Shown here in pieces: positions 5,258-61,561 of a DNA stretch of 64,000 nt; position 1 is the stretch's first letter, and every line of letters begins with the position of its first letter. Origin of the DNA: Pseudomonadota bacterium. Its GTDB lineage: Bacteria; Desulfobacterota; Binatia; Binatales; Binataceae. The stretch covers positions 74,646-138,645 of the forward strand of contig JAJPHZ010000022.1 in the NCBI GenBank assembly GCA_021325025.1. The letters are read 5' to 3'. The position numbers and the translations under genes are program-made. The notes beneath the pieces are model-generated. The model was not told the DNA's origin. It saw only the letters and a program-made list of their open reading frames with translations, and made no database searches.

Positions 5258-5265
5258 GTCGGCAT

Positions 5266-8560: not shown

Positions 8561-8563
8561 CGC

Positions 8564-9427: not shown

Positions 9428-9431
9428 GCTT

Positions 9432-12574: not shown

Positions 12575-12623
12575 CGGTAACGCGCGCGCCCCGATCTCCA
12601 AACAAGGCGCGCGGAGCGCGGCG

Positions 12624-45043: not shown

Positions 45044-48000
45044 ATGGCTCAACATCACACCGTTAAATTTGGCTGGCTCGCGACAGGCGCCATCGCGGCG
45101 GCCGCGATTGCCGCTTTGTCCCTGGCCGCACAGGCACAGGTCAGCGGTGGGGGCGGATTTCCGTACCCGACCGGGGTAACGAATGGGGCACCCGTCGCGC
45201 CTGCATATGGTGCAGGCACAGCCCCACCCTCGACGAACCCGTACGCCAATCCCGCCTATGGAAGTGCGCCGTATGGAACTGCGCCCTCCGCAGCAAACCC
45301 AGGGACTAACCCGTACACGACGCCCCCTTTCGGCAGTATCCCGCCCGGAAATCCGGCCTACGGGAGTTCTGCTTACGGACAAACCGCTCCAGGCTGGCAG
45401 GGTAGCTATTCCGCAACGCAATCCTACCTGTACTGGCGCGCTGCCGCCTGTGCCCGGGACCCTCGTAACTGTAGCAACGCGCCGTACAACGGCTACCTCG
45501 GTCCGAACGATTCCTCGTCGTTGTCGAAGTTCAATCCACCGATAACCGTGCCATACGGATCGGCGCCGATGCTGGGCCCGTATGGTTCGCCCGCGATCAC
45601 AGGGCCTTACGTGCCGCCCCCGGGGGGGACCTACGCTCCTCCGGCGCTTGCCAATACTCCGTATGGGCAGCCCGCTCCCTACGCTCAGCCCGGGGGATTC
45701 GGCGCCAATGGTGTGCCCGCCAACAACTCCTTTGCTCCCACGATGAGCAACCCACCCACGGGTGCACTGACCGGCGGGGCCGCATTCGGGCCTTATGGCC
45801 AACCCCCGATGGGCTATGTGGGACCGTCCTCACCGGGCCTGGCGGCCGGATCAGCCAACCTGGCAAACACCCAGATGCCCTCGCTTAACGGTCCTCCGCC
45901 CGCAGGTGGTTTTCCCTCCTCCGGCGGCTTTCCCAACTCAGGAACCATTGGATCATCGACGTCGGCCGCGAATGGCGGTCTGAACAATGCGTCGGGCGGC
46001 AACGGTGCGGCGGGTGGGTCAGGGATTTCCAACCTGCTCGGTGGAATCGACCAGAACACCCTCAACACCGTAGCCGCACAGCTTGGCGTTTCCACCGACC
46101 AACTCAACAAGCTCAAGACGGATGTCGCGAGCGGCGCGATTGGCTCCGACCAGCTACAGCAACTGAGCGCGCGCTTTGGTGCCCTGAACTTGAGCGACAA
46201 CCAGATGAACGCGATTGGCCGAACCTTGGGATTGAGCGACGCACAGATGGGCATGATCAAGCAGACGCTTGCGTCGGCCAGAGGTTCTCAACCCGGTATG
46301 CCAAACCCGGGCTTTGGCCCACCGCCCGCCGGGATAGCGCCGATGATGCCAGCGGTAAACGCAATGCCGCTACAGGTTCCGCCCTCGCCGATCGAGGTCA
46401 AGTTCCAACAAATCGACAATCCTTTGGACCTGCCCCAACCGCCGACAACCGACAATCTGACCCAGTTTGGCTACAACTTTTTTGTCTCAGGGGTTTCAAC
46501 CTTCGCGCCGGTGGCCAATGTGCCGGTGGGCAATGACTACGTCATCGGTCCGGGCGACGAAATCGATATCCTGCTGTGGGGGCGCGTCAACACCGTCTTG
46601 AACCCGGTCGTTGATCGCCAGGGAATGATCCAGGTGACGGAAATCGGACCGTTACAGGTCGCCGGCCTCACCTTTCAGCAAGCCAAAAAGCTGATCGAAG
46701 CCAAAGCCTCCAAAATGACCGGGGTTCAGGTCGACGTGACGATGGGCCAGTTGCGCACCATCAACGTGACCGTGGCCGGCGACGTCGTTCAGCCCGGCAG
46801 CTACCAGATCAGCGCTCTGTCGCGGGTTTCCAATGCGCTGGTGGCGGCGGGCGGGGTCAGCAAGGTCGGCAGCCTGCGCAACATCGAGGTGCGTCATGGC
46901 AATCAACTGGTCGATGTGATTGACATGTACGACATCCTGTTGCACGGCAACAATTCCGCCGACCGGCGCCTGGAAGAGGGCGACGTAATCTTCGTGCCGG
47001 TGATCGGTAGCGTGGTCGGGATTGCCGGCGACGTCAAGCGTCCGGCCATCTACGAGCTCAAGAAGGACCATCCCGAGACGCTGGATGCGGCATTAAGATT
47101 GGCAGGCGGAATTACCGGCTTCGGATTCGGCGACCATCTGCAGGTCGAGCGTATCCAGGACCACAAACGCATGGTGGCGATCAACGTCAGTCTCAGACGC
47201 CTGACCAATCAGAATTTCACGATTCGCGACGGCGATGTCATCAAGGTCTACCCGGTCATGATCGGGCCGGTCAACATGGTGATGCTGTCCGGAAACGTGC
47301 GCCGGCCGGGAAATTATCCGTGGTACAAAGGCATGCGTCTGTCTGACCTGATCAAAAAGGGCGACGGTGTATTGCCTAATACCTATTTGAAATACGCACT
47401 TGTTCGGCGGCTTTCCGGTCCGGGAAAGACCACTCATTTCCTCCAGGCCGATCTGGGCGATGCCCTGGCCAACCCCAGGATCGGGCAGGGTGACATTGCC
47501 CTGCAGCCCAAGGATGAAGTCGATATCTACAACGTTGAGGACGTCCGCGACCTGCCCTCCGTCGCGGTCAATGGAGAAGTGCGCCAGCCGGGCCGTTACG
47601 TCTTCAGCCCCGATATGAAGGTCAGCGACCTGGTCTTCATGGCCGGGGGATTGAAGGATGACGCCTACCAGGATCGCGTCGTGCTGGTGCGAACCGAAGT
47701 CGGCCCCGGTGGCAAGGCACAACGCAAACATTTCGATATCGATCTGCGCTCCATCATGCAGGGCAACTACAGTCTCGACACGCCGCTTAAGGCCAATGAC
47801 GAGTTATTCATAAGGTCGGTCGTGGACTGGCAGCGTCCGCCCCAGTTCGTTGAGATCACCGGCGAAGTCCGCATACCGGGTATCTATGACTACTATCCCG
47901 GCATGCGGGTCGGTGATCTGGTAGCTCTTGCCGGGGGAACACAGGATGATGCCTTTTTGAAGCGCGCGGAGCTGGCCCGCACTGAAGTTGTAAACGGTTC

Positions 48001-48949
48001 GCTGACGCGTCATACCTACATCGACATCGACCTGCGTCCGCAAGCCCAGGGCCCCAACGACAAGGCAACTCTGCTCAAACCCAATGACGAACTGTTGGTG
48101 AAGGCCGCGTCCAATTATCATCTGCCCTTTACCGTTACAGTCAGCGGCAAGGTGATGCGTCCGGGGGTTTACACAATCCGGGAAGGCGAACGGCTGCATT
48201 CGGTGCTTGAGCGATGCGGCGGCTTTTTGCCCGACGCCTTCGTGCAGGGCATCGTCTTCCGGCGGGTGTCAGTCCAGCAGATGGAGCAGGAGCGGCTCAA
48301 TGAAGCCCGCGAGCGGCTGAGCAAGGAAGCGGCGAACGTCGCGTTGACGCAGGCGCAGTTGGCGTCCTTCAACACCACCCCGGGCTCCGGGGCAAGCTCA
48401 GGCAACGCCACCGCCGCCATGATGGTATTGCAAAACGTGCTGTCGGCCTCCACCCGGCAGGCCGAAGGCCGCATGGTTATCCACGTCAATGCCGCGCTCG
48501 ACGGCAAGCCGGGTCCCGATGATGTCGTGCTGGAAGACGGCGACGAGATCGATGTCCCGGTCGTGCCGTCGTCAGTGATGGTGATGGGCGAGGTCAATCA
48601 TCCCAGTTCCTTCCTGAGACTGGGTTCCAAGACCGTGCGCGATTACATCAACGACGCCGGCGGTTTCACCCGTTATGCCGACAAAAAACAGGTCATCGTC
48701 ATCAAGGCGGACGGCTCGGTCCTGACCGCTGACGGCTACGATCAGAGCCGGCGCTCCAGGCTGTTTCCGGCCCTGCCGCTTATCTCGGGCGGCTTGATGG
48801 AGTCCAAACTGGAGGTCGGAGATACCGTTTTCGTTCCTGAAGATCTGTCCGGTTTCCAGAACATACAGATGACCAAGGATATAACGCAGATTGTAGCCAA
48901 CAGCGCCCAGAGCATAGCGATGATGGCGCTGCTCGCGACGCAACTGTAG
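45044..48949 (+). CDS. Giant multi-SLBB Wza/KpsD-like polysaccharide export protein fused to a roughly 450-aa Pro/Tyr/Gly/Ala-rich low-complexity N-terminal region
   Basis: GGAGG-rich RBS then ATG 45044. Signal peptide; residues roughly 30-460 are low-complexity (NPYANPAYGSAPYGTAP..., Gly/Ser-rich, LSDxQM helical repeats). A Poly_export-like domain follows (VIGPGDEIDILLWGR), then at least four beta-grasp SLBB repeats (each ...GEV..PG.Y......V.DL...AGG...). Confidence 0.8.
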   Translation: MAQHHTVKFGWLATGAIAAAAIAALSLAAQAQVSGGGGFPYPTGVTNGAPVAPAYGAGTAPPSTNPYANPAYGSAPYGTAPSAANPGTNPYTTPPFGSIPPGNPAYGSSAYGQTAPGWQGSYSATQSYLYWRAAACARDPRNCSNAPYNGYLGPNDSSSLSKFNPPITVPYGSAPMLGPYGSPAITGPYVPPPGGTYAPPALANTPYGQPAPYAQPGGFGANGVPANNSFAPTMSNPPTGALTGGAAFGPYGQPPMGYVGPSSPGLAAGSANLANTQMPSLNGPPPAGGFPSSGGFPNSGTIGSSTSAANGGLNNASGGNGAAGGSGISNLLGGIDQNTLNTVAAQLGVSTDQLNKLKTDVASGAIGSDQLQQLSARFGALNLSDNQMNAIGRTLGLSDAQMGMIKQTLASARGSQPGMPNPGFGPPPAGIAPMMPAVNAMPLQVPPSPIEVKFQQIDNPLDLPQPPTTDNLTQFGYNFFVSGVSTFAPVANVPVGNDYVIGPGDEIDILLWGRVNTVLNPVVDRQGMIQVTEIGPLQVAGLTFQQAKKLIEAKASKMTGVQVDVTMGQLRTINVTVAGDVVQPGSYQISALSRVSNALVAAGGVSKVGSLRNIEVRHGNQLVDVIDMYDILLHGNNSADRRLEEGDVIFVPVIGSVVGIAGDVKRPAIYELKKDHPETLDAALRLAGGITGFGFGDHLQVERIQDHKRMVAINVSLRRLTNQNFTIRDGDVIKVYPVMIGPVNMVMLSGNVRRPGNYPWYKGMRLSDLIKKGDGVLPNTYLKYALVRRLSGPGKTTHFLQADLGDALANPRIGQGDIALQPKDEVDIYNVEDVRDLPSVAVNGEVRQPGRYVFSPDMKVSDLVFMAGGLKDDAYQDRVVLVRTEVGPGGKAQRKHFDIDLRSIMQGNYSLDTPLKANDELFIRSVVDWQRPPQFVEITGEVRIPGIYDYYPGMRVGDLVALAGGTQDDAFLKRAELARTEVVNGSLTRHTYIDIDLRPQAQGPNDKATLLKPNDELLVKAASNYHLPFTVTVSGKVMRPGVYTIREGERLHSVLERCGGFLPDAFVQGIVFRRVSVQQMEQERLNEARERLSKEAANVALTQAQLASFNTTPGSGASSGNATAAMMVLQNVLSASTRQAEGRMVIHVNAALDGKPGPDDVVLEDGDEIDVPVVPSSVMVMGEVNHPSSFLRLGSKTVRDYINDAGGFTRYADKKQVIVIKADGSVLTADGYDQSRRSRLFPALPLISGGLMESKLEVGDTVFVPEDLSGFQNIQMTKDITQIVANSAQSIAMMALLATQL

Positions 48950-49176: not shown

Positions 49177-51012
49177 ATGCAAGCCAAGCTTACCCTGCTT
49201 CCGGATCGGCAAACCGTTGTGAGCGCGAAAGCTGCGCACCCTGCGCCGGCCCATTATCTACTTGCGTGGACTGGCGCCGTGATCGCGGCTGTAGCCGCGC
49301 TCCTGACTGCATGCTGTGCCGTGCGCGCCTCAACCTATGTGGTGTATATCGCACTGGATGACCCGGCTTACGACGAACTCGACAAACTAAACGGGATGGG
49401 CCTGCTCGACGACTATCTGTCCGAAATCAGGCCCATCGCCCGCGTCGAGGCGGCACGTCTGACCCTGGAGGCGCAGCGCAATCTGGACGAAGCCGAACAG
49501 CCCGATGCGCTGGCGGGCGTGCTAATCCGGTCGCTGCGCGAGGAGTTCCACGAAGAAATCCAGTGGCTGGAAAACGATCACGAAGACAATCCGCCCACCA
49601 TGATTCATCCGCTGGAACGGGTGGAAGCGCAATACATTTATTCAAGCGGCACGCGCCGGCGGTTTGCGCTCTTTAGCTCCAATCCGCTTGAGTATCAGGC
49701 CCAGGAAGCCACTCCGCTGCTGGCCAACAACGATGGTTTACCCACTTCGCCGGGCAGCAACGAGATCTTGCGCATTTCGAACTGGGCAGGCGTGGGCGGC
49801 TTTCTGACTGCGTACGGCGAAACCTCGGTCGCCGGCCCAATCGTTCACAGCCCTGCGCTCTTTGAGCAGGCTTGGCCGCCTGGCGCGCTCTACAACGGCT
49901 CTCCCGCCGTCACCCAAACCTCGGATACCAACCGGCTGCGTCTGCTGCGCGGGGGCGTGGTGGCAAGCATCGGCAATCAGGCGCTGGCCTTTGGCTACCA
50001 GGAAATGGGCTGGGGCACAGGGTACTTCGCTCCGCTATCGCAGGGCAACAATGCGCGTGCGTTTCCGGCCTTGACCTTTCAAAGCGTTCATCCCAGGCTG
50101 CTGCCGGGCTTCTTGCGCTACCTGGGACCGTTTCGGCATCAGATCTTCGTCGGGCGCCTTAATAACGGCCGCTATGCGGAAGATCTGCGGTTAACCCCCC
50201 CGTTGCTCAAGAACTACAATTACCCCTGGATTTCGGGGCAGGTCATCGCGTTCAAACCGCTGCCGACCTTCGAGTTCGGCCTGGATCACGTAATCATGTT
50301 CGGCGGGGCCGGCAACTCAAATTACGGATGGACCGGATGGCTGGGACGCGCCACCGGCCTGAACACCGGAAATACCAGTCAGGGAAATACCAACTCACGC
50401 GGCGGCGTGTTCCTGAAGATATATCTCCCGAGCCTGCGTAACACGGAGATTTACCAGGAGATCCTCGGCGAAGATAATCTGAGCACCGAATTCCGGCCGG
50501 TGGGAGGAGCGCTGCCGTTCCTGTCCGTTTCCTACCAGGGGGGAGTATATATCCCGCGCGTGACCGCCGACGGTTTGACCGATGCCCGCTTCGAATATGC
50601 GCTCATCGAACCGAACTATTCCAGGCACGACGACTCGCTGTACTGGGCCTATTACGGTCAGTTGATGGCGGATCCGATCGGTCCTGACGCCACCGAAATC
50701 GATTTGAGTGTCGGCCGCTGGTTCAATTACCGTTACCGGGGAGACGCCGACGTCTTCTATACCGAACGCGCCCCGAACTTCGAGATTGCCGGGCTCAGCA
50801 AGGAGCGCAGCGGCGGTATCGCGATCGATGTGATGCAGATCCCGGGCAGATTCGACGTCCAAAACTTCTCCCTTCTCGGTTCGCTCAGAGTACGGGCCGC
50901 ATGTGAGTATGTGCATGACATCAACTGGATGCGCGGAACCGACTCGGTGCGGACGATGGTGCTGATATCGGGATCCCTGTGGCCGGCTTGGGGAAGCTGG
51001 ATCTGGCACTAA
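49177..51012 (+). CDS. Putative outer-membrane beta-barrel protein, possibly capsule-assembly Wzi-family
   Basis: After an N-terminal signal/TM, a helical segment (DDPAYDELDKLNGMGLLDDYLSEIRPIARVEAARL) resembles the Wzi N-domain pattern Y..L..L...G......RP..R.E.A.L. The remainder is aromatic/Gly-rich and the protein ends in an aromatic-rich tail (WGSWIWH). Position next to wza fits. Family assignment is from memory only. Confidence 0.45.
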   Translation: MQAKLTLLPDRQTVVSAKAAHPAPAHYLLAWTGAVIAAVAALLTACCAVRASTYVVYIALDDPAYDELDKLNGMGLLDDYLSEIRPIARVEAARLTLEAQRNLDEAEQPDALAGVLIRSLREEFHEEIQWLENDHEDNPPTMIHPLERVEAQYIYSSGTRRRFALFSSNPLEYQAQEATPLLANNDGLPTSPGSNEILRISNWAGVGGFLTAYGETSVAGPIVHSPALFEQAWPPGALYNGSPAVTQTSDTNRLRLLRGGVVASIGNQALAFGYQEMGWGTGYFAPLSQGNNARAFPALTFQSVHPRLLPGFLRYLGPFRHQIFVGRLNNGRYAEDLRLTPPLLKNYNYPWISGQVIAFKPLPTFEFGLDHVIMFGGAGNSNYGWTGWLGRATGLNTGNTSQGNTNSRGGVFLKIYLPSLRNTEIYQEILGEDNLSTEFRPVGGALPFLSVSYQGGVYIPRVTADGLTDARFEYALIEPNYSRHDDSLYWAYYGQLMADPIGPDATEIDLSVGRWFNYRYRGDADVFYTERAPNFEIAGLSKERSGGIAIDVMQIPGRFDVQNFSLLGSLRVRAACEYVHDINWMRGTDSVRTMVLISGSLWPAWGSWIWH

Positions 51013-51027: not shown

Positions 51028-52098
51028 ATGGCGAATAACGAAGAGTTCAACGGGTCCAGGCAGACCCCTGCACAAAGCGGCAATGGCATCTTCGAGCTCG
51101 ACGGTGCGGCCGGAGAGGAAAGCAGCGGCATTCTGCGTTCCTACCTGGCGCTGGTCGCCCTGCGTCACCGCCGTCTGCTGATTGCCGCCACGGTGTCTTC
51201 AATGGTCCTGGTCTTCTGTCTGACCAAGTTCGTGATGAATCCCAAGTACCTGTCGACCGCGATCATCCGGCCGATCGGCCAAAGCACCAGCGGCATCGGC
51301 GGCCTGCTGCAGAGTACCGGGTTGTCCAACATGGCCAACATGAGCGGCACCGGAATTGACAGCGACATCGGCACCAATGTGCACGATCCGGAGGAATTGG
51401 TAGCCATCTTGAAAAGCTACACCTTCACCTCCAACCTCATCGAGAGCGAAAAACTCGGCCCCAGGCTTGGTGGAGGACACAGCATCTGGTCGCTGGTGCC
51501 CGCTTTTTTACGTCCCAAAGGCGGCGGCGGGTCGCCGCTGTGGGACTACTATCAGACGGTGAGTTCGCGTTTTGATTGTGAAAACAGCATGCGCACCGGC
51601 AATATCACCTTAACCTACATCGACAAGGATCCTGAACTGGCCAACTACGTCCTGCGCCTTTATATCGACCACCTGCGCGACCAGCTTCGCGCCCACGATG
51701 TAGCTTATGACAAGGCGGCGGCCAGATCGCTACAGCAGCAGGCGGCCACGGTCAGCGATCCGATGCTGCGCGACGACCTCTACGATCTCGCCGCCCGGCA
51801 AATAAAAAAGATTGGAACCGCGCAGGCCAACGCCGACTTCGCCTTCACCGTCCTGGAGAGACCCTACACCCCGCCTTATCCCGACCGGCCCTGGGTGGTG
51901 CTCGATACGCTGGCCGCCGGCATCGTGGTGCCGCTGTTTGTTTTTCTGGGCTTGGTGGTGCGCGACTGGGCGCCGCGTGTGAAGCACGATCTCGCTGAGG
52001 CTGCCTATGTGTCGGAGCGCACTCCCGACAGCATTGCGCTGTCGAGGAGACCTCGGCGTGCTCCGAGCCCCGAACAGGACCGGCCGTACACCGGATGA
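51028..52098 (+). CDS. Wzz-like polysaccharide co-polymerase (PCP-1 type, two TM helices)
   Basis: An N-terminal TM (LLIAATVSSMVLVFCLTKFV) directly precedes a Wzz-like motif (NPKYLSTAIIRP). A periplasmic coiled-coil follows, then a C-terminal TM (VVLDTLAAGIVVPLFVFLGLVV). Confidence 0.65.
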   Translation: MANNEEFNGSRQTPAQSGNGIFELDGAAGEESSGILRSYLALVALRHRRLLIAATVSSMVLVFCLTKFVMNPKYLSTAIIRPIGQSTSGIGGLLQSTGLSNMANMSGTGIDSDIGTNVHDPEELVAILKSYTFTSNLIESEKLGPRLGGGHSIWSLVPAFLRPKGGGGSPLWDYYQTVSSRFDCENSMRTGNITLTYIDKDPELANYVLRLYIDHLRDQLRAHDVAYDKAAARSLQQQAATVSDPMLRDDLYDLAARQIKKIGTAQANADFAFTVLERPYTPPYPDRPWVVLDTLAAGIVVPLFVFLGLVVRDWAPRVKHDLAEAAYVSERTPDSIALSRRPRRAPSPEQDRPYTG

Positions 52099-52143: not shown

Positions 52144-52818
52144 ATGACGCTCGACCCATATCTGATCAAAAGGGTACCGAAATGGCATTGGAAACGCTTG
52201 ACCTTTACTGCGTGGGCAAAACTGTCGGACCTGCATAGCCGGCTCTTCTTCCAGGAATACGAGATTCCCATGATCGATCGCGTCGGTGAACCCGGCGCCG
52301 CGCCCGATGCCTGTTGGGATGAAACTCAGGTCACACCGCAGCAAGCGGCCTACTTGTTAAAGGCCCTCGCCTTGGCTGACAATTGCGGGGAGTGCGTCGT
52401 CGAGGTCGGCGCCTGGCGCGGGGTCACGACGGAATATCTCGCCGCGGCCACCGACTCTCCCGTAGTTGCGATCGACCCGTTTATCGGTTCGGCAAACGAG
52501 ACCAACTTGCGCCGCTTCATGGAGCGGACCGCCGCCCTGGGGAATGTCACGTTGAGGCGCGAGACTTTTGGCCAGGCAGTGCGCAACTGGAATCTTGGTC
52601 CGGCGCGATTCATTTTCATCGACGCCGCTCATGACTACGTCAACGTGAGCCATGATCTTGCCGCGGCGATGCGTATCACGAAGCCGGGAGCGATTTTGGC
52701 ACTACACGATGTTGACGATCGGCGCTATGCTGGATGCCGAAGGGCGGTCTACGAGCGGTTAGAACGGTTCGAGCTTATCGCGCACATTCCGAACCTCGTC
52801 ATAGTGCGGCGATCTTAA
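52144..52818 (+). CDS. Class I SAM-dependent methyltransferase (Methyltransf_24/TylF-related O-methyltransferase)
   Basis: Motif I VVEVGAWRG and post-I IFIDAAHDY...ILALHDV. The start is uncertain (ATG 52144 preferred; TTG 52114 and ATG 52270 are alternatives). Confidence 0.6.
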   Translation: MTLDPYLIKRVPKWHWKRLTFTAWAKLSDLHSRLFFQEYEIPMIDRVGEPGAAPDACWDETQVTPQQAAYLLKALALADNCGECVVEVGAWRGVTTEYLAAATDSPVVAIDPFIGSANETNLRRFMERTAALGNVTLRRETFGQAVRNWNLGPARFIFIDAAHDYVNVSHDLAAAMRITKPGAILALHDVDDRRYAGCRRAVYERLERFELIAHIPNLVIVRRS

Positions 52819-52828
52819 GTAATCGGCG

Positions 52829-53623
52829 GTGAAGAATATACTTAAATCCTTTCTGCGTAGCTATCTTCTGGAAAGAGGATGGCGGCCGGCGGCTGCGATA
52901 CCGATCGAGGCCGCATGCCTTAACACCACGTTTCATTACGATGAAGAGCAAGATATAAGGCGTGCCATAGCAATTGTTCGCGGTCATACAATGATGTCTT
53001 TCGAGCGAGCTGCGACGCTTTGGCAACAGATGCGCTATCTTGACCGCCATCAGATCGAGGGTGCCATGGTGGAATGTGGTGTTTGGAAAGGCGGTGCCGT
53101 GGGACTGAGCGCCCTGGCGCACCTGGCGTCAGCAGCTCCTCCCCGCCGCCACCTCCATCTGTTCGACAGTTTCAACGGTCTTCCGGAGCCCGATGAGGAA
53201 CTGGACGGTCACAAAGCCGTACAGCTGAGCAATGGCAGGGCTTCGGGACGTCTCCAATCAACAAATGTGCTGGTGGCCGGAATCGAGGATAGCAAGACTC
53301 TTCTTGAGAGCATCATCGGCTATCCAAAAGAGCTGATTCATTACCATCGGGGCTGGTTTCAAGATACCATACCGCGTGATGCCAATACGATTGGTGCAAT
53401 CGCACTCCTCAGAATGGACGGCGACTGGTACGAGTCAACCGCGATCTGCATCAAGTATCTGTATCCGAAGGTCGCAAAGAACGGTATTGTCGTGATCGAC
53501 GACTATGGTCACTTCGAAGGGTGCCGCCGTGCGATAGACGAGTTTCTAGCCAAAGAAGCGTGTCCCATATTCTTAAACCATGTCGATTATGCCTGCCGGT
53601 ACTTTATCAAGCCTGAACGATGA
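52829..53623 (+). CDS. TylF/MycF-family macrocin-type sugar O-methyltransferase
   Basis: Family motifs ECGVWKGGA, LFDSFNGLP, and MDGDWYEST...VIDDYGHFEGCRRAIDEF. Confidence 0.8.
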   Translation: MKNILKSFLRSYLLERGWRPAAAIPIEAACLNTTFHYDEEQDIRRAIAIVRGHTMMSFERAATLWQQMRYLDRHQIEGAMVECGVWKGGAVGLSALAHLASAAPPRRHLHLFDSFNGLPEPDEELDGHKAVQLSNGRASGRLQSTNVLVAGIEDSKTLLESIIGYPKELIHYHRGWFQDTIPRDANTIGAIALLRMDGDWYESTAICIKYLYPKVAKNGIVVIDDYGHFEGCRRAIDEFLAKEACPIFLNHVDYACRYFIKPER

Positions 53624-53718
53624 CTAGACTATTAGCGCGCGAGCTGCCCAGCGCCTGGAACGTGGACGGGTGCTGAGAGAGTCGCTAATCCCAGGCTGGC
53701 CAGCAAACAGAGGAGGAG

Positions 53719-54843
53719 GTGCGGTCGATCGGACCAAGCAAGGCCCATCCCACGGTTGCAGTGTTTTTTCCGTTGCTCGCCGGAGGCGGATTGGAGCGGG
53801 TAATGTTGAACCTGGCCCGCGGTTTGGCGCTGAAGGGCACGCGTGTCGACCTGGTACTTGCGTGCGCGCAGGGGCCTTACCTCCAGGCCGTGCCTCCGGG
53901 CGTCAATCTGGTCGATTTCCGTTCGCTCAGGGTAAGCAGGTCGATCCTGCGCCTGGCGAGTTATCTCCGGCACAGGCGGCCCGATGCGGTTATTTCGGCT
54001 TCCACCCACGCCAATGTGGCCACCATTTGCGCCAGAGCGATTGCGCGCGGCGCCACGCGCGTGATCGTCACCGAACATAACCCGCCGACCACGGTTGCTG
54101 AGTACAACCAGGACTGGCGTACGTGGTTGCTGCATAGGACCATGAAGTCGGCCTACCGCTTCGCCGACTCAGTGGTGGCCGTGTCCCGGGGTCTGGCCGA
54201 CGATATGGCACGCCGCCTTCAGTTTGACCGCGACAGCATAAATGTCATCTACAATCCGGTGGTGACACCTGCGCTTCTTGCCAACGCCGCCGAACCCCTG
54301 GACCATCCATGGTTCGGACCGGGGCAACCCCCAGTTGTTCTAGCCGTGGGCCGGCTTGAGCCGCGTAAGGACTTTTCCACCCTGCTGAGAGCGTTCACCC
54401 GGCTCAGGCGCGCGCGGCCGGCGCGTATTATGATTCTGGGCGAAGGCCCGGACCGACCGCGGCTGGAATCAATTGTCCGAGAGCTGAGGATTGAGGAAAA
54501 CGCAGCACTTCCCGGCTTTGTGGATAATCCCTACAAATATATGAAGCGGGCAAAGGTTCTGGTTCTTTCTTCCCGATCGGAAGGACTGCCGACGGTTCTG
54601 ATCGAGGCGATGGCTCTGGGAACGCAAGTGGTGAGCACGGATTGCCTGAGCGGACCAGACGAGATTCTCGAATGGGGAAAATGGGGAAAATTGGTGCCGG
54701 TTGGTGATGACCTTCAAATGGCCTCCGCCATCTGCGATATTCTCGACGGTCGAGCTCGCTACAACGTCGAAGACCGAGCATCGGCTTTCTCACTGGATAA
54801 TATCGTTGATTCCTACCTCGATGTGGTATTGGCCGGCAGTTGA
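53719..54843 (+). CDS. Family 4 (GT-B) glycosyltransferase
   Basis: AGGAGGAGG RBS then GTG 53719. N-terminus FFPLLAGGGLERVMLNLARGL. C-terminal GT4 core PVVLAVGRLEPRKDFSTLLRAF...SRSEGLPTVLIEAMALGTQVVSTD. Confidence 0.85.
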   Translation: MRSIGPSKAHPTVAVFFPLLAGGGLERVMLNLARGLALKGTRVDLVLACAQGPYLQAVPPGVNLVDFRSLRVSRSILRLASYLRHRRPDAVISASTHANVATICARAIARGATRVIVTEHNPPTTVAEYNQDWRTWLLHRTMKSAYRFADSVVAVSRGLADDMARRLQFDRDSINVIYNPVVTPALLANAAEPLDHPWFGPGQPPVVLAVGRLEPRKDFSTLLRAFTRLRRARPARIMILGEGPDRPRLESIVRELRIEENAALPGFVDNPYKYMKRAKVLVLSSRSEGLPTVLIEAMALGTQVVSTDCLSGPDEILEWGKWGKLVPVGDDLQMASAICDILDGRARYNVEDRASAFSLDNIVDSYLDVVLAGS

Positions 54844-55050
54844 TGCGTTCCTGCAGGATCGAGTAGCAGCGCTCCGGAGAAGTAGACTTGCGGAACCTAC
54901 GCGTAACGCCTGCAAGCAAGCATCTACGGCCGGGCTGGTCTCAATTGCCCTGTATCAGTCCGGACGGAGGCCGATGCGCTTTTCTATGAAAGGGTCCGCG
55001 TTACCTTTGGGACAGCAAGCCGCGCGAGTTGCGAAAGACGCTTTTGACCG

Positions 55051-56412
55051 ATGAACCCGGCTGGCATCTGGCTGTCACTGCAAAAACGCAGCGCCTTCGG
55101 AGCTAATGTTGCTCTGACGGCTGCGACTAACCTTGCCATCGGAGTGCTTGGTCTGGTCACCGGAGTTCTCGCGGCGCGCCTTTTGGGCCCGCGCGGGCGA
55201 GGGGAGCTGGCGGCCATCCAAACCTACCCGATGCTACTCGCAAACCTGGCTATGCTGGGAACCGGTCCGTCGGTGGTCTATTTTTCGGCGCGTGATCCCG
55301 AACGCGCCGGGCGCTACCTTGGCTGCGCGGCTGTGATCGCGCTGCTTGCCTCCGCGCCTTTGATAACCGGCGGCTACCTGGCGATGCCGCTGTTGCTATC
55401 GGCCCAGTCGCCCCAAATCGTGACTGCGGCATGCTGGTACCTGATCAACGTACCCGTAGTCGCGATCATGTCGCTGTGGCTCTTTGTGCTGCGCGGCCGC
55501 AGTGATTTCCTGCCCTGGAACGCACTGCGGATTTTGCCGACCCTGGCTTGGCTGGCGGTGCTGGCTTCGGCCTGGTTGTGCGGAATCAGAGACCCGCGTC
55601 GCGTCGCGGCGGTTTACCTTGCCGCTCTATTCGCACTGTTAATCCCGTTCGAATTGATAGTCAAAAGGAACGTGCCGGGACGATTCACGCCCGAGGCGCG
55701 TCAATTCAGGCCGATGCTCGCCTATGGATTGCCTTGCGTGGCTTCCAGCTTGCCAGTGGTACTCAACCTGCGTCTGGATCAGATGTTGATGGCAGGCCTG
55801 CTGGCGCCCAGCGAACTCGGCCTGTACGTAGCGGCCGTTGCTTGGAGCGGCGCGATTAATCCTCTGATGAACGCCTTAAGTTCGGTGTTGTTTCCGAAGA
55901 TTGCTGCGCACAGGGCGGAAGCGGACCGCTTCCGCAGTTTCTTGCACGGCAGCCGCCTCGCGGTTGTGGTCGCCTTGATCACGGCGCCAATACTGGCTGC
56001 AGCCACTCCATGGGGCGTGGTTCTATTGTTCGGGGCCAAATTCCGCGGCGCGATCAAGGCGGCGCTGATACTGGTCCCGGCCGGGGCGGTGTCGGCACTC
56101 AACAGCGTGATCGAAGAGGGTTTTCGCGGCCTCGGCAAGCCGGCCGCGGTATTGTACGCCGAACTGGCCGGGCTGTTGATGACGATTGTCAGCTTGTATC
56201 TGCTGCTGCGCCCCATGGGGATCATCGGCGCGTCGATCGCTTCTTTGGCGGGTTATTCGACCGTAATGATGTCGCTGCTGCTTCAGGCCCGCTGGCTGAC
56301 GCACAAGTCGCCGGCTGAATTGCTGCTTCCGAGTCCGGAGGATGTTGTCGAAGGGCTTAAGCGCTTAGCCACATTGGCGCGGAGCATGGTTTTGGTGATA
56401 TCGCGCGCCTGA
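55051..56412 (+). CDS. Wzx-type polysaccharide flippase (MOP superfamily), second copy in the window
   Basis: 453 aa, about 12-14 TM helices, with Wzx-typical loop motifs (LGPRGRGELAAIQTY; LPCVASSLPVVLNLRLDQMLMAGL). Confidence 0.8.
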   Translation: MNPAGIWLSLQKRSAFGANVALTAATNLAIGVLGLVTGVLAARLLGPRGRGELAAIQTYPMLLANLAMLGTGPSVVYFSARDPERAGRYLGCAAVIALLASAPLITGGYLAMPLLLSAQSPQIVTAACWYLINVPVVAIMSLWLFVLRGRSDFLPWNALRILPTLAWLAVLASAWLCGIRDPRRVAAVYLAALFALLIPFELIVKRNVPGRFTPEARQFRPMLAYGLPCVASSLPVVLNLRLDQMLMAGLLAPSELGLYVAAVAWSGAINPLMNALSSVLFPKIAAHRAEADRFRSFLHGSRLAVVVALITAPILAAATPWGVVLLFGAKFRGAIKAALILVPAGAVSALNSVIEEGFRGLGKPAAVLYAELAGLLMTIVSLYLLLRPMGIIGASIASLAGYSTVMMSLLLQARWLTHKSPAELLLPSPEDVVEGLKRLATLARSMVLVISRA

Positions 56413-56512
56413 AAGAGGTTGCAGCGATTTGCTGCCTGGCACGCCGCAACAAGCGCCTGGCCTGCTTGCGGCATTACGTCGGCGCGGATGACTTGTTGCT
56501 TTTACGAAATCG

Positions 56513-57400
56513 ATGGCGCGTAAACCGAATTTCTTCATAATTGGCGCTCCCAAGTGCGGCACGACTTCTCTGGCTACCTATCTCCGTGAACACCCAAAAA
56601 TATTCTTCCCGGCTCGAAAGGAACTGCTCTTTTTCAACACCGATATGGCGTCCCGGGCGGTCCGGTCCGAGGCCGATTACTATGGATATTTCAGTGATGC
56701 CCAGCCGCAGCATATTGCAGTCGGTGAAGGCTCAGTAACGTATCTATATTCCGACGCAGCGGTACCCAATATCCTGAAAGCAATTCCCGACGCCAAGTTT
56801 ATCGTGATGGCGCGCAATCCGATCGACATGGCGGTCTCCTTGCACGCGCAGCTTCACCGCCAGGGAGACGAAAATTTGAAAGACTTCGCGACCGCCTGGC
56901 ATGTGCAGGAAAAGAGAAAAAAGGGAAAGCGGATTCCGCCGCTTTGCACCGATCCGAGCCTTTTACTGTATGGCAATGTCTGCAGCGTCGGATGGCAGTT
57001 GAAGCGGCTTTACACTAGAGTTGCCCGGCACCGTGTGCTCGTCCTCTTCCAAGACGACCTCAAGCGCGACACCAGGTCGGTGTATCTGCAGACACTGGAG
57101 TTTCTTGGCGTGCCGGACGACGGCCGAACGGCCTTCGGCGTCCACAATACTCGCCAGCCCCGGCTCCGCTCGCAACTTTTTCAGGCCGTACTCCGCTCCA
57201 TCGGCGTTCTAAAACTGAGACTGGGTGTGAAACGTTCATTCCGCATCCTGCCTCTGATCGAGCGACTCAATGTTACGTCCGTCCGAGAGAGCGTGATCGA
57301 CCGGGAATTCAAGGTGGAGTTGGCGCAATACTTCCGCAACGACGTGGAAGAGATGTCCACCCTTGTAGACCGTGATCTGTCAGCGTGGCTGCGAGTCTGA
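56513..57400 (+). CDS. PAPS-dependent sulfotransferase (carbohydrate sulfotransferase-like)
   Basis: 5'-PSB motif FFIIGAPKCGTTSL at the N-terminus. A 3'-PB-like region (RNPIDMAVSLHAQ). Confidence 0.8.
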   Translation: MARKPNFFIIGAPKCGTTSLATYLREHPKIFFPARKELLFFNTDMASRAVRSEADYYGYFSDAQPQHIAVGEGSVTYLYSDAAVPNILKAIPDAKFIVMARNPIDMAVSLHAQLHRQGDENLKDFATAWHVQEKRKKGKRIPPLCTDPSLLLYGNVCSVGWQLKRLYTRVARHRVLVLFQDDLKRDTRSVYLQTLEFLGVPDDGRTAFGVHNTRQPRLRSQLFQAVLRSIGVLKLRLGVKRSFRILPLIERLNVTSVRESVIDREFKVELAQYFRNDVEEMSTLVDRDLSAWLRV

Positions 57401-57526: not shown

Positions 57527-58945
57527 ATGAGTGTCCAATTCGTTATTTATGGCGCAATCGTGCTGGTCGCCTCGCTGATCGCCTTGATCGTGGTCAAGCC
57601 GCGCAATGCGTTCGACCTCAGCCGCTGCGTGGGCTGGTACATCCTGCTCTTTGCGACGACCTATGTGGTGCGGCCGGCATTGTCGGAGTTGGTCGGCGAC
57701 TATTCGATGTACCAGTGGTTGCAAGCCGGCTATCTCGAGGATCACTGGGAACTAATGGCGGTCGCCGGCTCGCTGGCGATTGTCTGCTTCGGAATCGGCT
57801 ATGCATCAGGGCGCCCATCGCGCCGGCTCGCGGCCGTCGCCGAAAATCCGGCGCCAGAGCCGACAGTAAATCCGCGTCTGGTCCGAAGACTTATTGTTTG
57901 TCTTCTCTTCATTGGCTACCTGTCCGCATTGTTTGTTCTAAAATACGGCGGCGGGGACGAAACGCTTCACGCCAGGACTGCCACGATGGGGACCTACGAG
58001 CACGGCACGGCCTGGTTCTCGCAGGATGATCTGCTTATTTCGTGCGCCACGGTCCTTTACTATATAGCGACCGGACGTCTTGGCATAAGTCTCTTGCTAG
58101 CCGGTCCATGGCTTGGGTTAAGAGTACTAAGCGGGTGGGGCAGGACGAACCTGATTGGGCACTTTTTTGCGCTGATGTCCGTGTATTTTCTCAAGCGCCG
58201 CAAGAGGGAACGTGTTGCCGGGAAAACTCGTCAGGCTCTTGTCATCGGTTGCGGGGTTGTGTCGGTGCTTGTTCTGTTTCCGTTGATGGGGATGCTGCGG
58301 GGTTTGAGAAGTGAGTTGGGTGGCAGCGCAAAGGATGCCATCATGATGGTACGATCGACCACCGATCCGGGAGACGTGGCGCAGACCTATTTCGGCACCA
58401 ACAGCCCGGTCTCCGGATTTGAACTGACGCTGTCGCATCTGGTTAACGACAAACGTTCCGAACTGGGTACACAGTATCTATACTATTTTTTCTTCCAGCC
58501 AATCCCGCGCATTATCTGGCCTGGCAAAGGCAGCCCATACAGTTGGCCGGAAAAGCTGCGGGGCATCGAGGTCGACCCCTTATTGGGAATAATCGGTGCT
58601 GCTCCGGGCTCGATCGGGATGGCATTCGAGCAATGGGGCTGGCTCGGGATTCCGCTGGAATTCATCCTTACCGGGCTGATAATTCGCAGGTGGGAGGAAG
58701 CCGCACGCCGGCGCCCGAAGGCGCTTCATGTGCAGTTAAGTTATGCAGGACTTTGCAGCCTCGTGCCGCAGCTCGGTCGAGACAGTTTATTTTATATGAT
58801 CTCGCAGTTCTGGCTGTTTAAGTTCGGCATCGCAGTTTTCATCCTGTGGATTATGTACCGAAGTGAGCTCGCACGAAGCGGATTGCGAACGACTTCAGCA
58901 CGTGTGTTTCCGGTGCCGCCGGCCCCAGCCGCTGCCAAGGCGTAG
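57527..58945 (+). CDS. Wzy-type oligosaccharide repeat-unit polymerase (membrane protein), second copy
   Basis: 472 aa, about 10-12 TM helices with a large central loop. No conserved enzymatic motif; it sits between the wzx and GT genes. Confidence 0.6.
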   Translation: MSVQFVIYGAIVLVASLIALIVVKPRNAFDLSRCVGWYILLFATTYVVRPALSELVGDYSMYQWLQAGYLEDHWELMAVAGSLAIVCFGIGYASGRPSRRLAAVAENPAPEPTVNPRLVRRLIVCLLFIGYLSALFVLKYGGGDETLHARTATMGTYEHGTAWFSQDDLLISCATVLYYIATGRLGISLLLAGPWLGLRVLSGWGRTNLIGHFFALMSVYFLKRRKRERVAGKTRQALVIGCGVVSVLVLFPLMGMLRGLRSELGGSAKDAIMMVRSTTDPGDVAQTYFGTNSPVSGFELTLSHLVNDKRSELGTQYLYYFFFQPIPRIIWPGKGSPYSWPEKLRGIEVDPLLGIIGAAPGSIGMAFEQWGWLGIPLEFILTGLIIRRWEEAARRRPKALHVQLSYAGLCSLVPQLGRDSLFYMISQFWLFKFGIAVFILWIMYRSELARSGLRTTSARVFPVPPAPAAAKA

Positions 58946-59117: not shown

Positions 59118-60356
59118 ATGATCCGTGCAAGGTCTGTGGGGGCGACAAAAGATAATAGTATTCGCACCGATATAGCTCCGGAAGCCCGGCCGGTGCCGCT
59201 GCGCGTAGCGCTGCTCGTTGCCAATTATGGAAACTACCATCTGGCAAGAGCGCGGGCGCTGACCCACATCGGGGACATCGAACCCAGCTTCATCGAGTTG
59301 GCGGCGGGAGTGAAAAGATCGCCGTGGTGGACCGGGGAGCGGGAGTTCGATCGCCGCATTATCAGGTTGAGCGATTCATCGTACGAGGAAGCGCCGATGC
59401 GGCAGTTGAGCCGCCAAGTGCTGGCAGTGCTGTCGCAGCTTGAGCCAGCCGTGGTCGTTATCGCGGGATACAGCGACCCGCCGATGCGTAGCGCGGCGCG
59501 CTGGGCGCGGCGCAACTCGCGCGGCGTGGTGCTGATGGGAGAAACCACCGAGTGGGATCTCAGGCGGCACTGGTGGAAGGAATTCCTCAAGCGGGCATGG
59601 ATAAGACGCTATGTTGACGCGGCGGTCGTCGGCGGCCAGCCCCACCGTAGCTACATCGTCAAGCTCGGCATCGATCCCAAACGCGTCTGGGATCGTTACG
59701 ACGTCGTCGATAATGAGTATTTCTCTTCGCACGCCGATGCACTACGGGCCGCGGGTTCCAAGGCGCGGATCGAGGCGGGATTGCCTGAAGATTACTTTCT
59801 GTTTGTGGGCCGCTTCGCGCCGGAAAAGGGCCTGCAGACGCTGCTGCGCGCCTATCGCCGCTATCGTCAACAGGATGTGCGCCCCTGGAGTCTGGTTCTG
59901 GTGGGCGATGGACCGCTGCGCGCCGCTCTGATGAAAGTCGAGCGCGAAGAGGGGATTGAGGGCGTGGTCTGGGCCGGCCCAAAGCTGGGAGAGGAATTGC
60001 CGCGCTTTTACGGTTTCGCGGGATGTTTCATCCTGCCCAGCATCCTCGAGCCGTGGGGCCTGGTGGTAAACGAAGCGATGGCCAGTGGACTGCCGGTAAT
60101 CGTGTCTAATCGATGCGGCAGCGCGGCGGACCTTGTCGTCCCCGGAGTTAACGGGTTTGTGTTTGATGCCGCCGACGTCGATCAACTCGGCGCGCTGATG
60201 TCGCAGATGGCGGCGAAATCACGGGAACAGCGGCACGCGATGGGCATGGCGTCCAGAAAAATCATCGCCTCATGGTCGCCGGAACGATGGGCTGCTCAGG
60301 TGGCATGTGCGGTGCGGGTCGCGGCCCGATGGGCGCCGGCCGGGCGCAACTCCTGA
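59118..60356 (+). CDS. Family 4 glycosyltransferase
   Basis: N-terminus RVALLVANYGNYH. GT4 core FLFVGRFAPEKGLQTLLRAY...LPSILEPWGLVVNEAMASGLPVIVSN...NGFVFD. Confidence 0.8.
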   Translation: MIRARSVGATKDNSIRTDIAPEARPVPLRVALLVANYGNYHLARARALTHIGDIEPSFIELAAGVKRSPWWTGEREFDRRIIRLSDSSYEEAPMRQLSRQVLAVLSQLEPAVVVIAGYSDPPMRSAARWARRNSRGVVLMGETTEWDLRRHWWKEFLKRAWIRRYVDAAVVGGQPHRSYIVKLGIDPKRVWDRYDVVDNEYFSSHADALRAAGSKARIEAGLPEDYFLFVGRFAPEKGLQTLLRAYRRYRQQDVRPWSLVLVGDGPLRAALMKVEREEGIEGVVWAGPKLGEELPRFYGFAGCFILPSILEPWGLVVNEAMASGLPVIVSNRCGSAADLVVPGVNGFVFDAADVDQLGALMSQMAAKSREQRHAMGMASRKIIASWSPERWAAQVACAVRVAARWAPAGRNS

Positions 60357-60370: not shown

Positions 60371-61561
60371 ATGCGTGTGCTCGCGATTAGCCATTACGCG
60401 ACCTGGGGCGGCCCGATCAATCGTGCCTCTTGTCTGGCGCCGCTTCTGCGCGAACGTGGGATCGAGACTATGGTGCTCGTGCCCGCCGAGAAGGGCGATG
60501 CCCCTGAACGGTTGAACGAGGCCGGCGTAAAAACGATTCAGATGCCGCTGCATAGGATGCGCCGCACCATCCATCCCGTCGAGCATGCAAGGTATTTTAG
60601 AGCGTTCCCCGGCGAAATTCGTTCGCTGCGCAAGGTGCTGCGTGAGCACAGCGTCGACCTGGTGCAGATTTACGGGCTTAACCTGCAAGGCGGAATCGCG
60701 GGAAAACTGGAAGGGATACCGGTTGTCTGGCAACTGGTCGATGTTGGCAACCCGTTTCTGCTGCGCCGGCTGACGATGCCAATTGTGCTGCGGCTTGCCG
60801 ATGTGCTGATGACCACCGGTCGAGCGGTTGCTCAAGCGCATCCGGGCGCAACCAGTTTCAACGATCGTCTGTTCGTTTTCTTTCCACCGGTGGATCTCAA
60901 CCGTTTCAGGTCCGACGCCGCGTTGCGAGCGGCGGCGCGCCTGGAGCTCGGCGTCAGACCCGGGGAGTTGGTGATCGGAACCGTGGGCAATATCAGTCCC
61001 CAGAAAGACCATTTTACATTTGTAGAGGCGGCTGCGGCGCTGAAGAAAAGATTTGCCGCGCTGCGCTTTGTCATCCTGGGCACCACGCTGGCGACCCGGC
61101 GCGAGTTCGCCGCGCACCTTTTGCAACGCGCGCAAGAGCTGGGCTTGAGCCCGGAGCGCGATATCACGATCAGAAACCCGGGAACCAGGGTGCCTCAACT
61201 GGCCCAAGCGTTCGATATTTTCTGGCTGACGTCGCTATGGGAAGGACTTCCAACCGCTGTGGAAGAGGCAATGGCGTTGCAAATTCCCGTTGTTGCCACC
61301 GACGTTGGTTCCGTGCGCGAAGCCATCCACGACGGCGTAAATGGATGCCTCGTGCCCGCCCGCGACCCCGACGCCCTGGTTCACGCGACTCTGCCTCTAC
61401 TGCACAGTGAGCAACTCCGCAAGCGCATCGGAGCCGAAGCGTATTCATTTGCAGCCAAGCATTTTGACTCCCGAATTTGCGCGGAGGTGCATGCGCTGGC
61501 GTTCGAGCGGGCCGTCGCCAACCATAATGCCGCACATCACAACGGCTGGACGCATCCATAG
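60371..61561 (+). CDS. Family 4 glycosyltransferase
   Basis: N-terminus MRVLAISHYATWGGP. GT4 core LVIGTVGNISPQKDHFTFVEAA...LWEGLPTAVEEAMALQIPVVATDVGSVRE. Confidence 0.8.
   Translation: MRVLAISHYATWGGPINRASCLAPLLRERGIETMVLVPAEKGDAPERLNEAGVKTIQMPLHRMRRTIHPVEHARYFRAFPGEIRSLRKVLREHSVDLVQIYGLNLQGGIAGKLEGIPVVWQLVDVGNPFLLRRLTMPIVLRLADVLMTTGRAVAQAHPGATSFNDRLFVFFPPVDLNRFRSDAALRAAARLELGVRPGELVIGTVGNISPQKDHFTFVEAAAALKKRFAALRFVILGTTLATRREFAAHLLQRAQELGLSPERDITIRNPGTRVPQLAQAFDIFWLTSLWEGLPTAVEEAMALQIPVVATDVGSVREAIHDGVNGCLVPARDPDALVHATLPLLHSEQLRKRIGAEAYSFAAKHFDSRICAEVHALAFERAVANHNAAHHNGWTHP

Follow-up and report, generated by a model that had tools for sequence, protein, structure and literature searches.

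Locus B, a candidate Wzx/Wzy locus for a sulfated and O-methylated polysaccharide

Introduction

Sulfated polysaccharides of bacteria have been stated to occur only, or almost only, in cyanobacteria (PMC8205485, 2021; PMC13390465, 2026). The gene cluster described here, locus B, lies outside that group and occupies the last part of a window of 64,000 nucleotides (the whole stretch of DNA that was analysed; assembly GCA_021325025.1, contig JAJPHZ010000022.1, positions 74,646 to 138,645). Judging by its sequences and by structure models, locus B is likely to be a Wzx/Wzy-dependent locus for a capsule or exopolysaccharide (EPS) whose repeat unit would be sulfated, O-methylated and probably amidated in the cytoplasm before export. 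This prediction, drawn from genome sequence, adds a member in a new phylum to a known type of system and involves no new mechanism; sequence comparison indicates that many bacterial genomes carry similar clusters.

Among the described systems, synechan (xss, Synechocystis sp. PCC 6803 plasmid pSYSM, XssA-XssS) resembles locus B in that its sulfotransferases (STs) are encoded amid the glycosyltransferase (GT), flippase and polymerase genes of a Wzx/Wzy EPS locus. Synechan production depends on the ST XssA, and decoration in the cytoplasm before flipping was proposed for this polymer (PMC8205485); the same model is used below for locus B. XssA (L089:5412-6317) was 30% identical to the ST of locus B over 202 amino acids (aa), and the PKxxT loop and the KEPxFF glutamate motif (KEPNFF in XssA) were common to both. 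The two STs of synechan belong to different subfamilies, and the similarity of XssE to the ST of locus B was marginal (24% locally). Synechan also differs in being cyanobacterial and plasmid-borne, in having neither TylF or Methyltransf_24 methyltransferases nor AsnB, and in its unlinked outer-membrane polysaccharide export (OPX) gene, whereas locus B is headed by Wza and Wzi; its sulfation is chemically proven, that of locus B predicted. As to counterparts of XssQ, XssR and XssS, Pfam and NCBIfam scans of locus B found no STAND/NACHT regulator and no adjacent two-component pair.

A non-cyanobacterial cluster of the Wzx/Wzy type is known from plasmid pSymB of Sinorhizobium meliloti, with three STs (SMb21237, SMb21243 and SMb21249) belonging to the Clr regulon. 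A sulfated surface polysaccharide has been suggested as the product of this Clr-regulated cluster, which is still uncharacterised (PMC5498481), and the same article cites sulfated lipopolysaccharide (LPS) and capsular polysaccharide (KPS) as documented in rhizobia. A pSymB ST aligned with that of locus B over its full length (27.8% identity, E 3e-15) and adjoins genes for Wzx-like, GT4, O-antigen-ligase-family and Wzz proteins. The pSymB cluster differs from locus B in carrying the nodP2Q2 genes for synthesis of 3'-phosphoadenosine 5'-phosphosulfate (PAPS) (PMC5498481), and no TylF-type methyltransferase was annotated in the stretch looked at. That stretch (L090; CP140934.1 898890-917699) held three annotated ST genes in 16 kb, amid genes for Wzx-like, GT4, O-antigen-ligase-family, Wzz, OPX, sugar-transferase, DegT and PIG-L deacetylase proteins; in many pSymB records the homologous stretch was left without any annotated gene.

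The wps-1 locus of Actinoplanes missouriensis is also of the Wzx/Wzy type and encodes two STs (one of the heparan-sulfate type) and an S-adenosylmethionine (SAM) methyltransferase; a sulfated, modified EPS was predicted for it from sequence and mutant phenotype (PMC13390465), by reasoning of the sort applied here to locus B. It differs from locus B in its Gram-positive host, the absence of Wza and Wzi, a single methyltransferase of unspecified family and additional GH26 and kinase-like genes, and was likened to locus B by description, not by sequence.

The sulfotransferase

The ST gene (56513-57400) encodes a protein that matched Pfam Sulfotransfer_3 with 52.2 bits (cut-off 27) and Sulfotransfer_1 with 42.2 bits (cut-off 22), which establishes its family membership. 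An initial annotation, made from the letters of the window, had called it a PAPS-type enzyme: both profiles came out above their cut-offs, the PAPS-binding motifs were intact, and the motifs and coordinates quoted for this protein and for the TylF protein discussed below were all present at the genes concerned. NCBIfam offered no specific family for the ST, NoeE reaching a sub-threshold 18 bits.

The 5'-phosphosulfate-binding (5'-PSB) stretch, FFIIGAPKCGTTSL, spans residues 7-20 and contains the loop 13-PKCGTTS-19, which aligned with QKTGTT of NDST1. Among 60 homologues (44-71% identity) G11, A12 and T17 were invariant, and P13, K14, G16 and T18 were at least 90% conserved. The 3'-phosphate-binding (3'-PB) motif, 101-RNPIDMAVS-109, aligned with REPTTRAIS of 3-OST-5; R101 (in the same 60 homologues) and P103 were invariant, and K36, E37 and H111 were at least 90% conserved among the 60. 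K14, E37 and the 3'-PB motif were also conserved in a smaller full alignment of 16 homologues, with the exception at S109 given below. E37, within KELLFFN, aligned with the glutamate of EEIQFFN (NDST1) and of QEIHFFD (3-OST-5), which we take to be the catalytic base of these heparan-sulfate enzymes, as against the histidine of the cytosolic SULTs.

Sequence searches of the PDB matched 3RNL, an Alicyclobacillus ST, over the full length (3.9e-29), and the N-sulfotransferase domain of NDST1 and 3-OST-5 over the N-terminal half (2e-4 to 1.5e-3). The AlphaFold2 model was of high confidence (predicted local distance difference test score, pLDDT, 94.7; predicted template-modelling score, pTM, 0.91), and Foldseek again placed 3RNL first among PDB entries (1e-17), followed by NDST1 and 3-OST-1/3/5 (7e-10 to 1e-7); cytosolic, tyrosyl-protein and polyketide (CurM-type) STs were weaker (5e-6 or worse). 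Motifs and modelled fold thus support the assignment to the heparan-sulfate type of carbohydrate STs and predict PAPS-dependent sulfation of a sugar. The fold, the 5'-PSB, the 3'-PB and the glutamate base are common to the animal enzymes (NDST, 3-OST-1/3/5) and to the ST of locus B; the animal enzymes, however, are 14-22% identical to it, are located in the Golgi lumen and act on finished glycosaminoglycan chains, whereas the topology predicted here is cytoplasmic. Since the ST has no hydrophobic segment, its expected place of action is the cytoplasm, the compartment of PAPS synthesis.

The ST protein was 100% identical to an NCBI entry named 'MAG TPA: sulfotransferase domain-containing protein [Terriglobales bacterium]', and identical copies were present on 11 public contigs (JGI, ENA and NCBI, from several independent metagenomes), including one of GCA_035294445.1. 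Locus B is accordingly ascribed to a soil bacterium of the Terriglobales, an order of the Acidobacteriota.

The methyltransferases

The initial annotation had placed two adjacent methyltransferases in the TylF class. This held for the second, methyltransferase 2 (52829-53623), which matched Pfam TylF (PF05711) with 145.5 bits (cut-off 23) and carries the motifs ECGVWKGGA (residue 82), LFDSFNG (111), MDGDWYEST (196) and VIDDYG (222). Its PDB matches were NovP (1.8e-23), MycF (1.5e-16) and, weakly, the TDP-rhamnose O-methyltransferase CalS11 (1e-3). The acidic residues D197/D199 (MDGD) and D224/D225 (DD) aligned with RMDGDLYES...VDDY of NovP; their equivalents are presumably the metal-binding and catalytic aspartates of NovP and MycF. 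The GTG start is backed by full-length homologues of 264 aa. Characterised members of the TylF/MycF/NovP family methylate deoxysugars of macrolide or aminocoumarin antibiotics, or a TDP-sugar (CalS11), whereas this member lies in a polysaccharide locus. Because relatives at 52-58% identity sit in polysaccharide loci (below), its acceptor is presumably a sugar of the repeat unit.

The first, methyltransferase 1 (52144-52818), belongs to the TylF class in a loose sense only. Methyltransf_24 was its sole Pfam match, TylF being unmatched at E<=0.01; comparison of its profile with that of its TylF neighbour (hhalign) showed a remote relationship, with E 1.5e-4, a probability of 52% and 147 columns aligned at 24% identity. 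Corresponding motifs nevertheless follow one another in the same order in both (VEVGxWRG/VECGVWKG, IDPFIG/FDSFNG, FIDAAHDY/RMDGDWYES and HDxD..AGCRRAV/IDDY..EGCRRAI, methyltransferase 1 given first), and NCBIfam assigned neither to a family. The longest open reading frame (ORF) of methyltransferase 1 begins with TTG at 52114; homologues begin at the equivalent of 52144. Its subfamily is small (44 matches in a word-indexed search), with VEVG..G.TT, D111, D160, H163, H188, D189 and D191 invariant.

The AlphaFold2 model of methyltransferase 1 (pLDDT 94.2) had as its best Foldseek match MeT1 (6g80; 6e-9, TM about 0.6), with MycF and CalS11 lower down, and on this model the protein is a metal-dependent-type O-methyltransferase. 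MeT1 (6G7D/6G80), the 1-O-methyltransferase of mycobacterial methylmannose polysaccharide, is likewise small, of the cation-dependent type and linked to a polysaccharide, and was the sole PDB sequence match (E 0.043; identity 18-22%), although methyltransferase 1 has a conserved N-terminal extension of 60 residues of its own. That its acceptor is a sugar is suggested by gene context, not by fold.

Gene order and conserved linkage

An unbroken run of genes on the + strand extends from 45044 to the end of the window (ORF listing). Within it, locus B comprises 12 co-directional genes separated by gaps of at most 227 nt, in the order Wza-Wzi-PCP-MT-MT-GT4-Wzx-ST-Wzy-GT4-GT4-AsnB (PCP, polysaccharide co-polymerase; MT, methyltransferase), followed by the start of one more gene:

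45044..48949, + strand: Wza/OPX-like outer-membrane polysaccharide export protein, 1301 aa (Pfam Poly_export 6e-16; SLBB 2e-61, 7 stretches; SLBB_2 8e-42)
49177..51012, + strand: Wzi-family capsule assembly outer-membrane protein, 611 aa (Caps_assemb_Wzi 9.7e-51, 173 bits, cut-off 30)
51028..52098, + strand: probable Wzz-like PCP, 356 aa (Pfam Wzz 8e-4, 20.1 bits, cut-off 25.5)
52144..52818, + strand: methyltransferase 1, Methyltransf_24 family, 224 aa from ATG (Pfam 2.6e-15, 57.6 bits)
52829..53623, + strand: methyltransferase 2, TylF/MycF/NovP family, 264 aa, GTG start (TylF PF05711 2.3e-42)
53719..54843, + strand: GT4 glycosyltransferase a (Glycos_transf_1 5e-31, Glyco_transf_4 7e-25; start at 53761 or 53803 in public annotations)
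55051..56412, + strand: Wzx-type flippase of the MOP family, 453 aa (Polysacc_synt PF01943 7.5e-17, 62 bits; Polysacc_synt_3 8e-10)
56513..57400, + strand: PAPS-type carbohydrate ST, 295 aa (Sulfotransfer_3 1.2e-13, Sulfotransfer_1 8.5e-11)
57527..58945, + strand: Wzy-type repeat-unit polymerase, 472 aa (O-ag_pol_Wzy PF14296 8.5e-8, 31.7 bits, cut-off 26.6; TIGR04370 44.2 bits, cut-off 40)
59118..60356, + strand: GT4 glycosyltransferase b (Glycos_transf_1 1.3e-33)
60371..61561, + strand: GT4 glycosyltransferase c, 396 aa as called by NCBI (Glycos_transf_1 2.9e-31)
61768..63678, + strand: AsnB-type glutamine-dependent amidotransferase, 636 aa (Asn_synthase 1e-83, GATase_7 3.5e-40)
63719..64000, + strand: third methyltransferase, Methyltransf_11 type, 5' part only, as the gene crosses the window end (gene calls on the identical contigs L001, L002, L097 and L098)

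The longest ORF of GT4 c begins at 60272, and the NCBI start at 60371 abolishes its apparent overlap with GT4 b. Past position 64000, identical contigs encode an NAD-dependent epimerase, then a methyltransferase of the Methyltransf_23 type and another AsnB of 640 aa; they end after one further, partial ORF that could not be assigned. The full locus thus has one ST, four methyltransferases and two AsnB genes for decoration, against three visible GT4 genes. Hydrophobic segments were absent from the ST, the methyltransferases, the glycosyltransferases and AsnB. The G+C content, 62-69% across most of the window, fell to 57-60% in everything past about 43 kb, the part that includes locus B.

The position of the ST between wzx and wzy, claimed by the initial annotation, was borne out, Wzx matching PF01943 with 62 bits and Wzy exceeding its Pfam and NCBIfam cut-offs. 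This position bears on the possibility that the ST, the methyltransferases or both act on some other acceptor (LPS core, an O-antigen made elsewhere, a glycolipid, a secreted oligosaccharide or a protein) and owe their place in the locus to co-regulation or chance. A substrate cannot be read from sequence, characterised bacterial STs include some that act on Nod factors and on LPS, LpsS is encoded away from the polysaccharide cluster (PMC5498481), and a second polysaccharide locus (locus A, 569-13487) lies in the same window. We nevertheless consider another acceptor unlikely: the ST gene is on the same strand as wzx and wzy with gaps of only 100 and 126 nt, the association of ST, Wzy, Wzx and GT4 b was kept in three relatives (63-71% ST identity) despite rearrangement, and the neighbours of distant ST homologues were overwhelmingly polysaccharide-assembly genes.

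The three relatives (L007, L008 and L009) encode STs 71, 63 and 67% identical, respectively, to that of the window and keep orthologous Wzx, Wzy, GT4 b, AsnB and epimerase (E 1e-100 to 1e-200), together with varying sets of methyltransferases. Orthologues of Wzx were matched in L007 and L009 (E about 1e-190), and those of Wzy (about 1e-190 to 1e-200) and GT4 b (1e-130 to 1e-154) in all three. Within 20 kb, L007 (1-20885; ENA ERZ25039593 contig_37027), the closest of the three, encodes eight or more methyltransferases that fall into five Pfam types (CmcI, TylF, Methyltransf_24 and several Methyltransf_11/23), a load that implies an exceptionally heavily methylated glycan. In L007 (14265-15884) and L008 (5647-7296) a protein of about 540 aa with no Pfam match, absent from locus B, is encoded after a gene for a large Wzy-like or unassigned membrane protein.

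Homologues of the methyltransferases were sampled as well. Those of the TylF protein (52-58% identity) lay, on all three contigs sampled, in Wza-Wzi-Wzz-Wzx-...-GT4 loci, with a Methyltransf_24 gene near in two of them. The two sampled homologues of methyltransferase 1 were found in a nucleoside diphosphate (NDP)-deoxysugar cluster of Thiocapsa and in a GT-rich locus that adjoins an exosortase gene and has TylF encoded 4 kb away. Synteny therefore agreed in every sample: homologues of the ST, of TylF and of methyltransferase 1 occurred in polysaccharide or NDP-sugar loci. Because the ST profiles and motifs held and the methyltransferase homologues were linked to such loci, the reading of the initial annotation, a sulfated and O-methylated Wzx/Wzy polysaccharide, stands as a prediction supported by motifs, modelled folds and conserved neighbourhood.

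Distribution of the sulfotransferase family

To estimate family size, 1.84 billion cluster representatives (50% identity clusters) were searched exhaustively with HMMER, which gave 27,778 relatives of the ST at E<=1e-3, 11,664 at E<=1e-10 and 2,076 at E<=1e-30. When each GTDB species was represented by one genome and scanned with a single peptide pattern, 215 loci were confirmed. The 80 that were kept belong to Alpha-, Gamma- and Deltaproteobacteria, Bacteroidota, Verrucomicrobiota, Chloroflexota, Planctomycetota, Nitrospirales, Saccharibacteria and Acidobacteriota. On plasmids the family was found in 220 records, including S. meliloti pSymB, many Phaeobacter plasmids and Synechocystis pSYSM.

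For the neighbourhood, searching the 80 loci by phmmer with the Wzx, Wzy, Wzi and PCP of the window proved too insensitive (0-2 matches each), and a Pfam scan of the longest ORFs flanking the ST, one per side, was used instead (57 loci, 113 ORFs). GT4 was the most frequent family (18 ORFs), followed by Wzx-type flippases (9), GT2 (7), Wzy_C (6), further STs (4), AsnB and epimerases (3 each) and Bac_transf (2). The initial annotation had called sulfated bacterial exopolysaccharides uncommon outside cyanobacteria, rhizobia and marine taxa; that such loci are uncommon is contradicted at the genome level by 2,076 clusters at E<=1e-30 spread over many phyla, mostly with polysaccharide genes as neighbours. 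The pairing of ST with TylF, on the other hand, was uncommon: a profile hidden Markov model (HMM) built from 120 TylF homologues found TylF within 10 kb of the ST in 2 of 82 loci.

Some family members are fusions: in P0338, P0366, P0395, P0415, P0417 and P0419 (about 700-750 aa) and in P0286 (573 aa) the ST domain is C-terminal to an uncharacterised part of about 450 residues, and one fusion protein has two ST-like stretches.

Locus B and the survey of the ST family point against the view that sulfated polysaccharides are confined to cyanobacteria, an intact carbohydrate-type ST being encoded in Wzx/Wzy loci of Acidobacteria and many other phyla. In the literature, no report of sulfated EPS in Acidobacteria and nothing relevant on TylF in polysaccharide loci was found.

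Assembly, export and amidation

The Wza-like protein has, after a signal-like hydrophobic segment, an N-terminal part of about 480 aa that is of low complexity and rich in G, A, P, S and N (G 15%, A 14%, P 14%). Its length (1301 aa) is unusual; the version in a related locus (L092) has 920 aa. The PCP candidate has hydrophobic segments at residues 48-70 and 288-316 and no kinase domain, and in related loci Wzz-like genes occupy the same position; topology and position both suit a PCP. At least seven merged hydrophobic blocks were counted in Wzx. Pfam and NCBIfam scans of locus B found neither a Wzc kinase nor a Wzb phosphatase, so that, with Wza and Wzi found, membership in the group-1 type of capsule export is partial as judged from the gene set.

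These genes also bear on whether the product of locus B, while still a sulfated glycan, is an LPS O-antigen and not a capsule or free EPS. Wzx/Wzy machinery is common to O-antigen and capsule pathways, no Wzc-type tyrosine kinase was found in locus B, and sulfated LPS is known in S. meliloti (PMC5498481). On the other side, the Wza (Poly_export and SLBB) and Wzi at the head of locus B mark group-1-type capsule or EPS export and are dispensable for O-antigen, no WaaL-type ligase was found in the locus (the sole Wzy_C match of the window being in locus A), and Terriglobia isolates are described as forming capsules and EPS (PMC11354219). We therefore regard an O-antigen as quite unlikely and a capsule or EPS as the probable product.

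The AsnB-type gene reported at 61768-63678 was recovered, with 415 bits against the generic TIGR01536 (cut-off 267). A more specific assignment, to the XrtA/PEP-CTERM amidotransferases (TIGR03108), was rejected, the score of 395 bits being well under the cut-off of 816.9. AsnB homologues of O-antigen loci offer an analogy for amidation of uronic acids, and by that analogy it is plausible that AsnB amidates a uronic acid of the glycan.

Proposed pathway

In the pathway that we infer, including its acceptor, the positions of sulfation and methylation and the order of the steps, an oligosaccharide would be built on undecaprenyl diphosphate by the GT4 enzymes. While this unit faces the cytoplasm, the soluble ST would move sulfate from PAPS to a sugar hydroxyl by means of K14 (5'-PSB), E37 (base) and R101-S109 (3'-PB), N-sulfation being less likely. 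The TylF-family and Methyltransf_24 enzymes would O-methylate sugars with SAM, though the latter may instead take an NDP-sugar precursor; the two methyltransferases encoded just past the window probably add methyl groups too, and the AsnB homologues probably amidate uronic-acid carboxylates. The decorated unit would then be flipped by Wzx, polymerised by Wzy under control of the PCP and exported through the giant Wza, where Wzi may tether the polymer as a capsule, free EPS being the other presumed outcome.

Several observations count against this pathway. The PCP assignment is sub-threshold (Wzz 20.1 bits against 25.5), and no priming phosphoglycosyl transferase (WbaP/Bac_transf or WecA type) was found among the scanned ORFs of the window or in about 5 kb downstream on public contigs; the priming enzyme may be encoded elsewhere, and Bac_transf genes are present in a related locus (L093). 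S109 of the 3'-PB motif was alanine in 4 of 16 aligned homologues and serine in the other 12, and the nearest solved relative of the ST, 3RNL, is a structure without an assigned substrate. For methyltransferase 1, Foldseek does not separate MeT1 (6e-9) from catechol-type O-methyltransferases (1e-8). Finally, the 64-kb window held no gene for PAPS synthesis (cysC, cysN/cysD or nodPQ) and none for a phosphatase of 3'-phosphoadenosine 5'-phosphate.

This last point, with the presumed availability of PAPS, raises the possibility that the ST is idle, either for want of PAPS (assimilation through adenosine 5'-phosphosulfate only) or because the gene is silent, and that the polymer is methylated and not sulfated. 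Besides the lack of sulfate-activation genes in the window, the promoter scan of locus B fits such silence, as it gave nothing above chance: counts of promoters and terminators did not exceed those in shuffled sequence, and no sigma-70-like consensus stood out in the leader upstream of wza. Yet the catalytic and cofactor residues of the ST are conserved as under selection, the identical protein recurs on the 11 contigs from several independent metagenomes, and PAPS genes are normally unlinked to such loci; an idle ST thus appears very unlikely.

With the sulfated polymer as the preferred reading, we put forward as a tentative proposal that Terriglobales, which rank among the most abundant bacteria of soils, are coated with a capsule bearing sulfate, several O-methyl groups (four methyltransferases) and amides (two AsnB), and, more broadly, given the size and spread of the ST family, that sulfated polysaccharides are common outside cyanobacteria. 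Should the polymer truly be sulfated, sulfated EPS would extend to a dominant soil phylum (Acidobacteriota), bacterial ST and methyltransferase parts would be at hand for engineering sulfated polysaccharides, and, by our own inference, part of the large ester-sulfate pool in soil organic sulfur would be of microbial origin, with such polymers as a potentially significant contributor.

Other features of the window

A compact co-directional cluster upstream encodes Rrf2 (15899-16357), YezD/DUF2292 (16402-16608; 68 aa, E 1.7e-17), a porin of the phosphate-selective type and TauE/SafE (18268-19161), and may be a sulfur-anion module. The initial annotation had noted the Rrf2, YezD and TauE genes, which are real, as possibly linked to sulfur supply. 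This link was rejected: the cluster lies about 26 kb upstream of wza, and about 20 unrelated genes on both strands intervene, among them MMPL, histidine kinase/sigma-54 regulator, dehydrogenase, hydrolase, MFS and acyl-CoA genes (15.9-43.9 kb annotated). The link is unsupported because TauE belongs to an exporter family and not to sulfate activation, the shared window being the sole tie.

The histidine kinase (with PAS domain) and the sigma-54-dependent response regulator form a pair at 22094-24720, 20 kb upstream of locus B. Matches to the sigma-54 -24/-12 pattern were fewer than expected by chance, with none in the leader and none near either polysaccharide locus. The leader itself (43896-45043) is a non-coding stretch of 1.15 kb 5' of wza, and the 2-kb windows across it gave the G+C minimum of the whole window (about 57-59%). 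An Rfam scan of the whole window returned zero matches to structured RNAs, and no tRNAs were found.

Locus A (569-13487) encodes a short Wza, a Wzz-like PCP, a GFO/IDH/MocA oxidoreductase, a DegT aminotransferase, Wzx, GT2 and GT4 glycosyltransferases, a large Wzy_C/O-antigen-ligase-family protein and a polysaccharide deacetylase, a gene content that suggests a glycan containing amino sugars.

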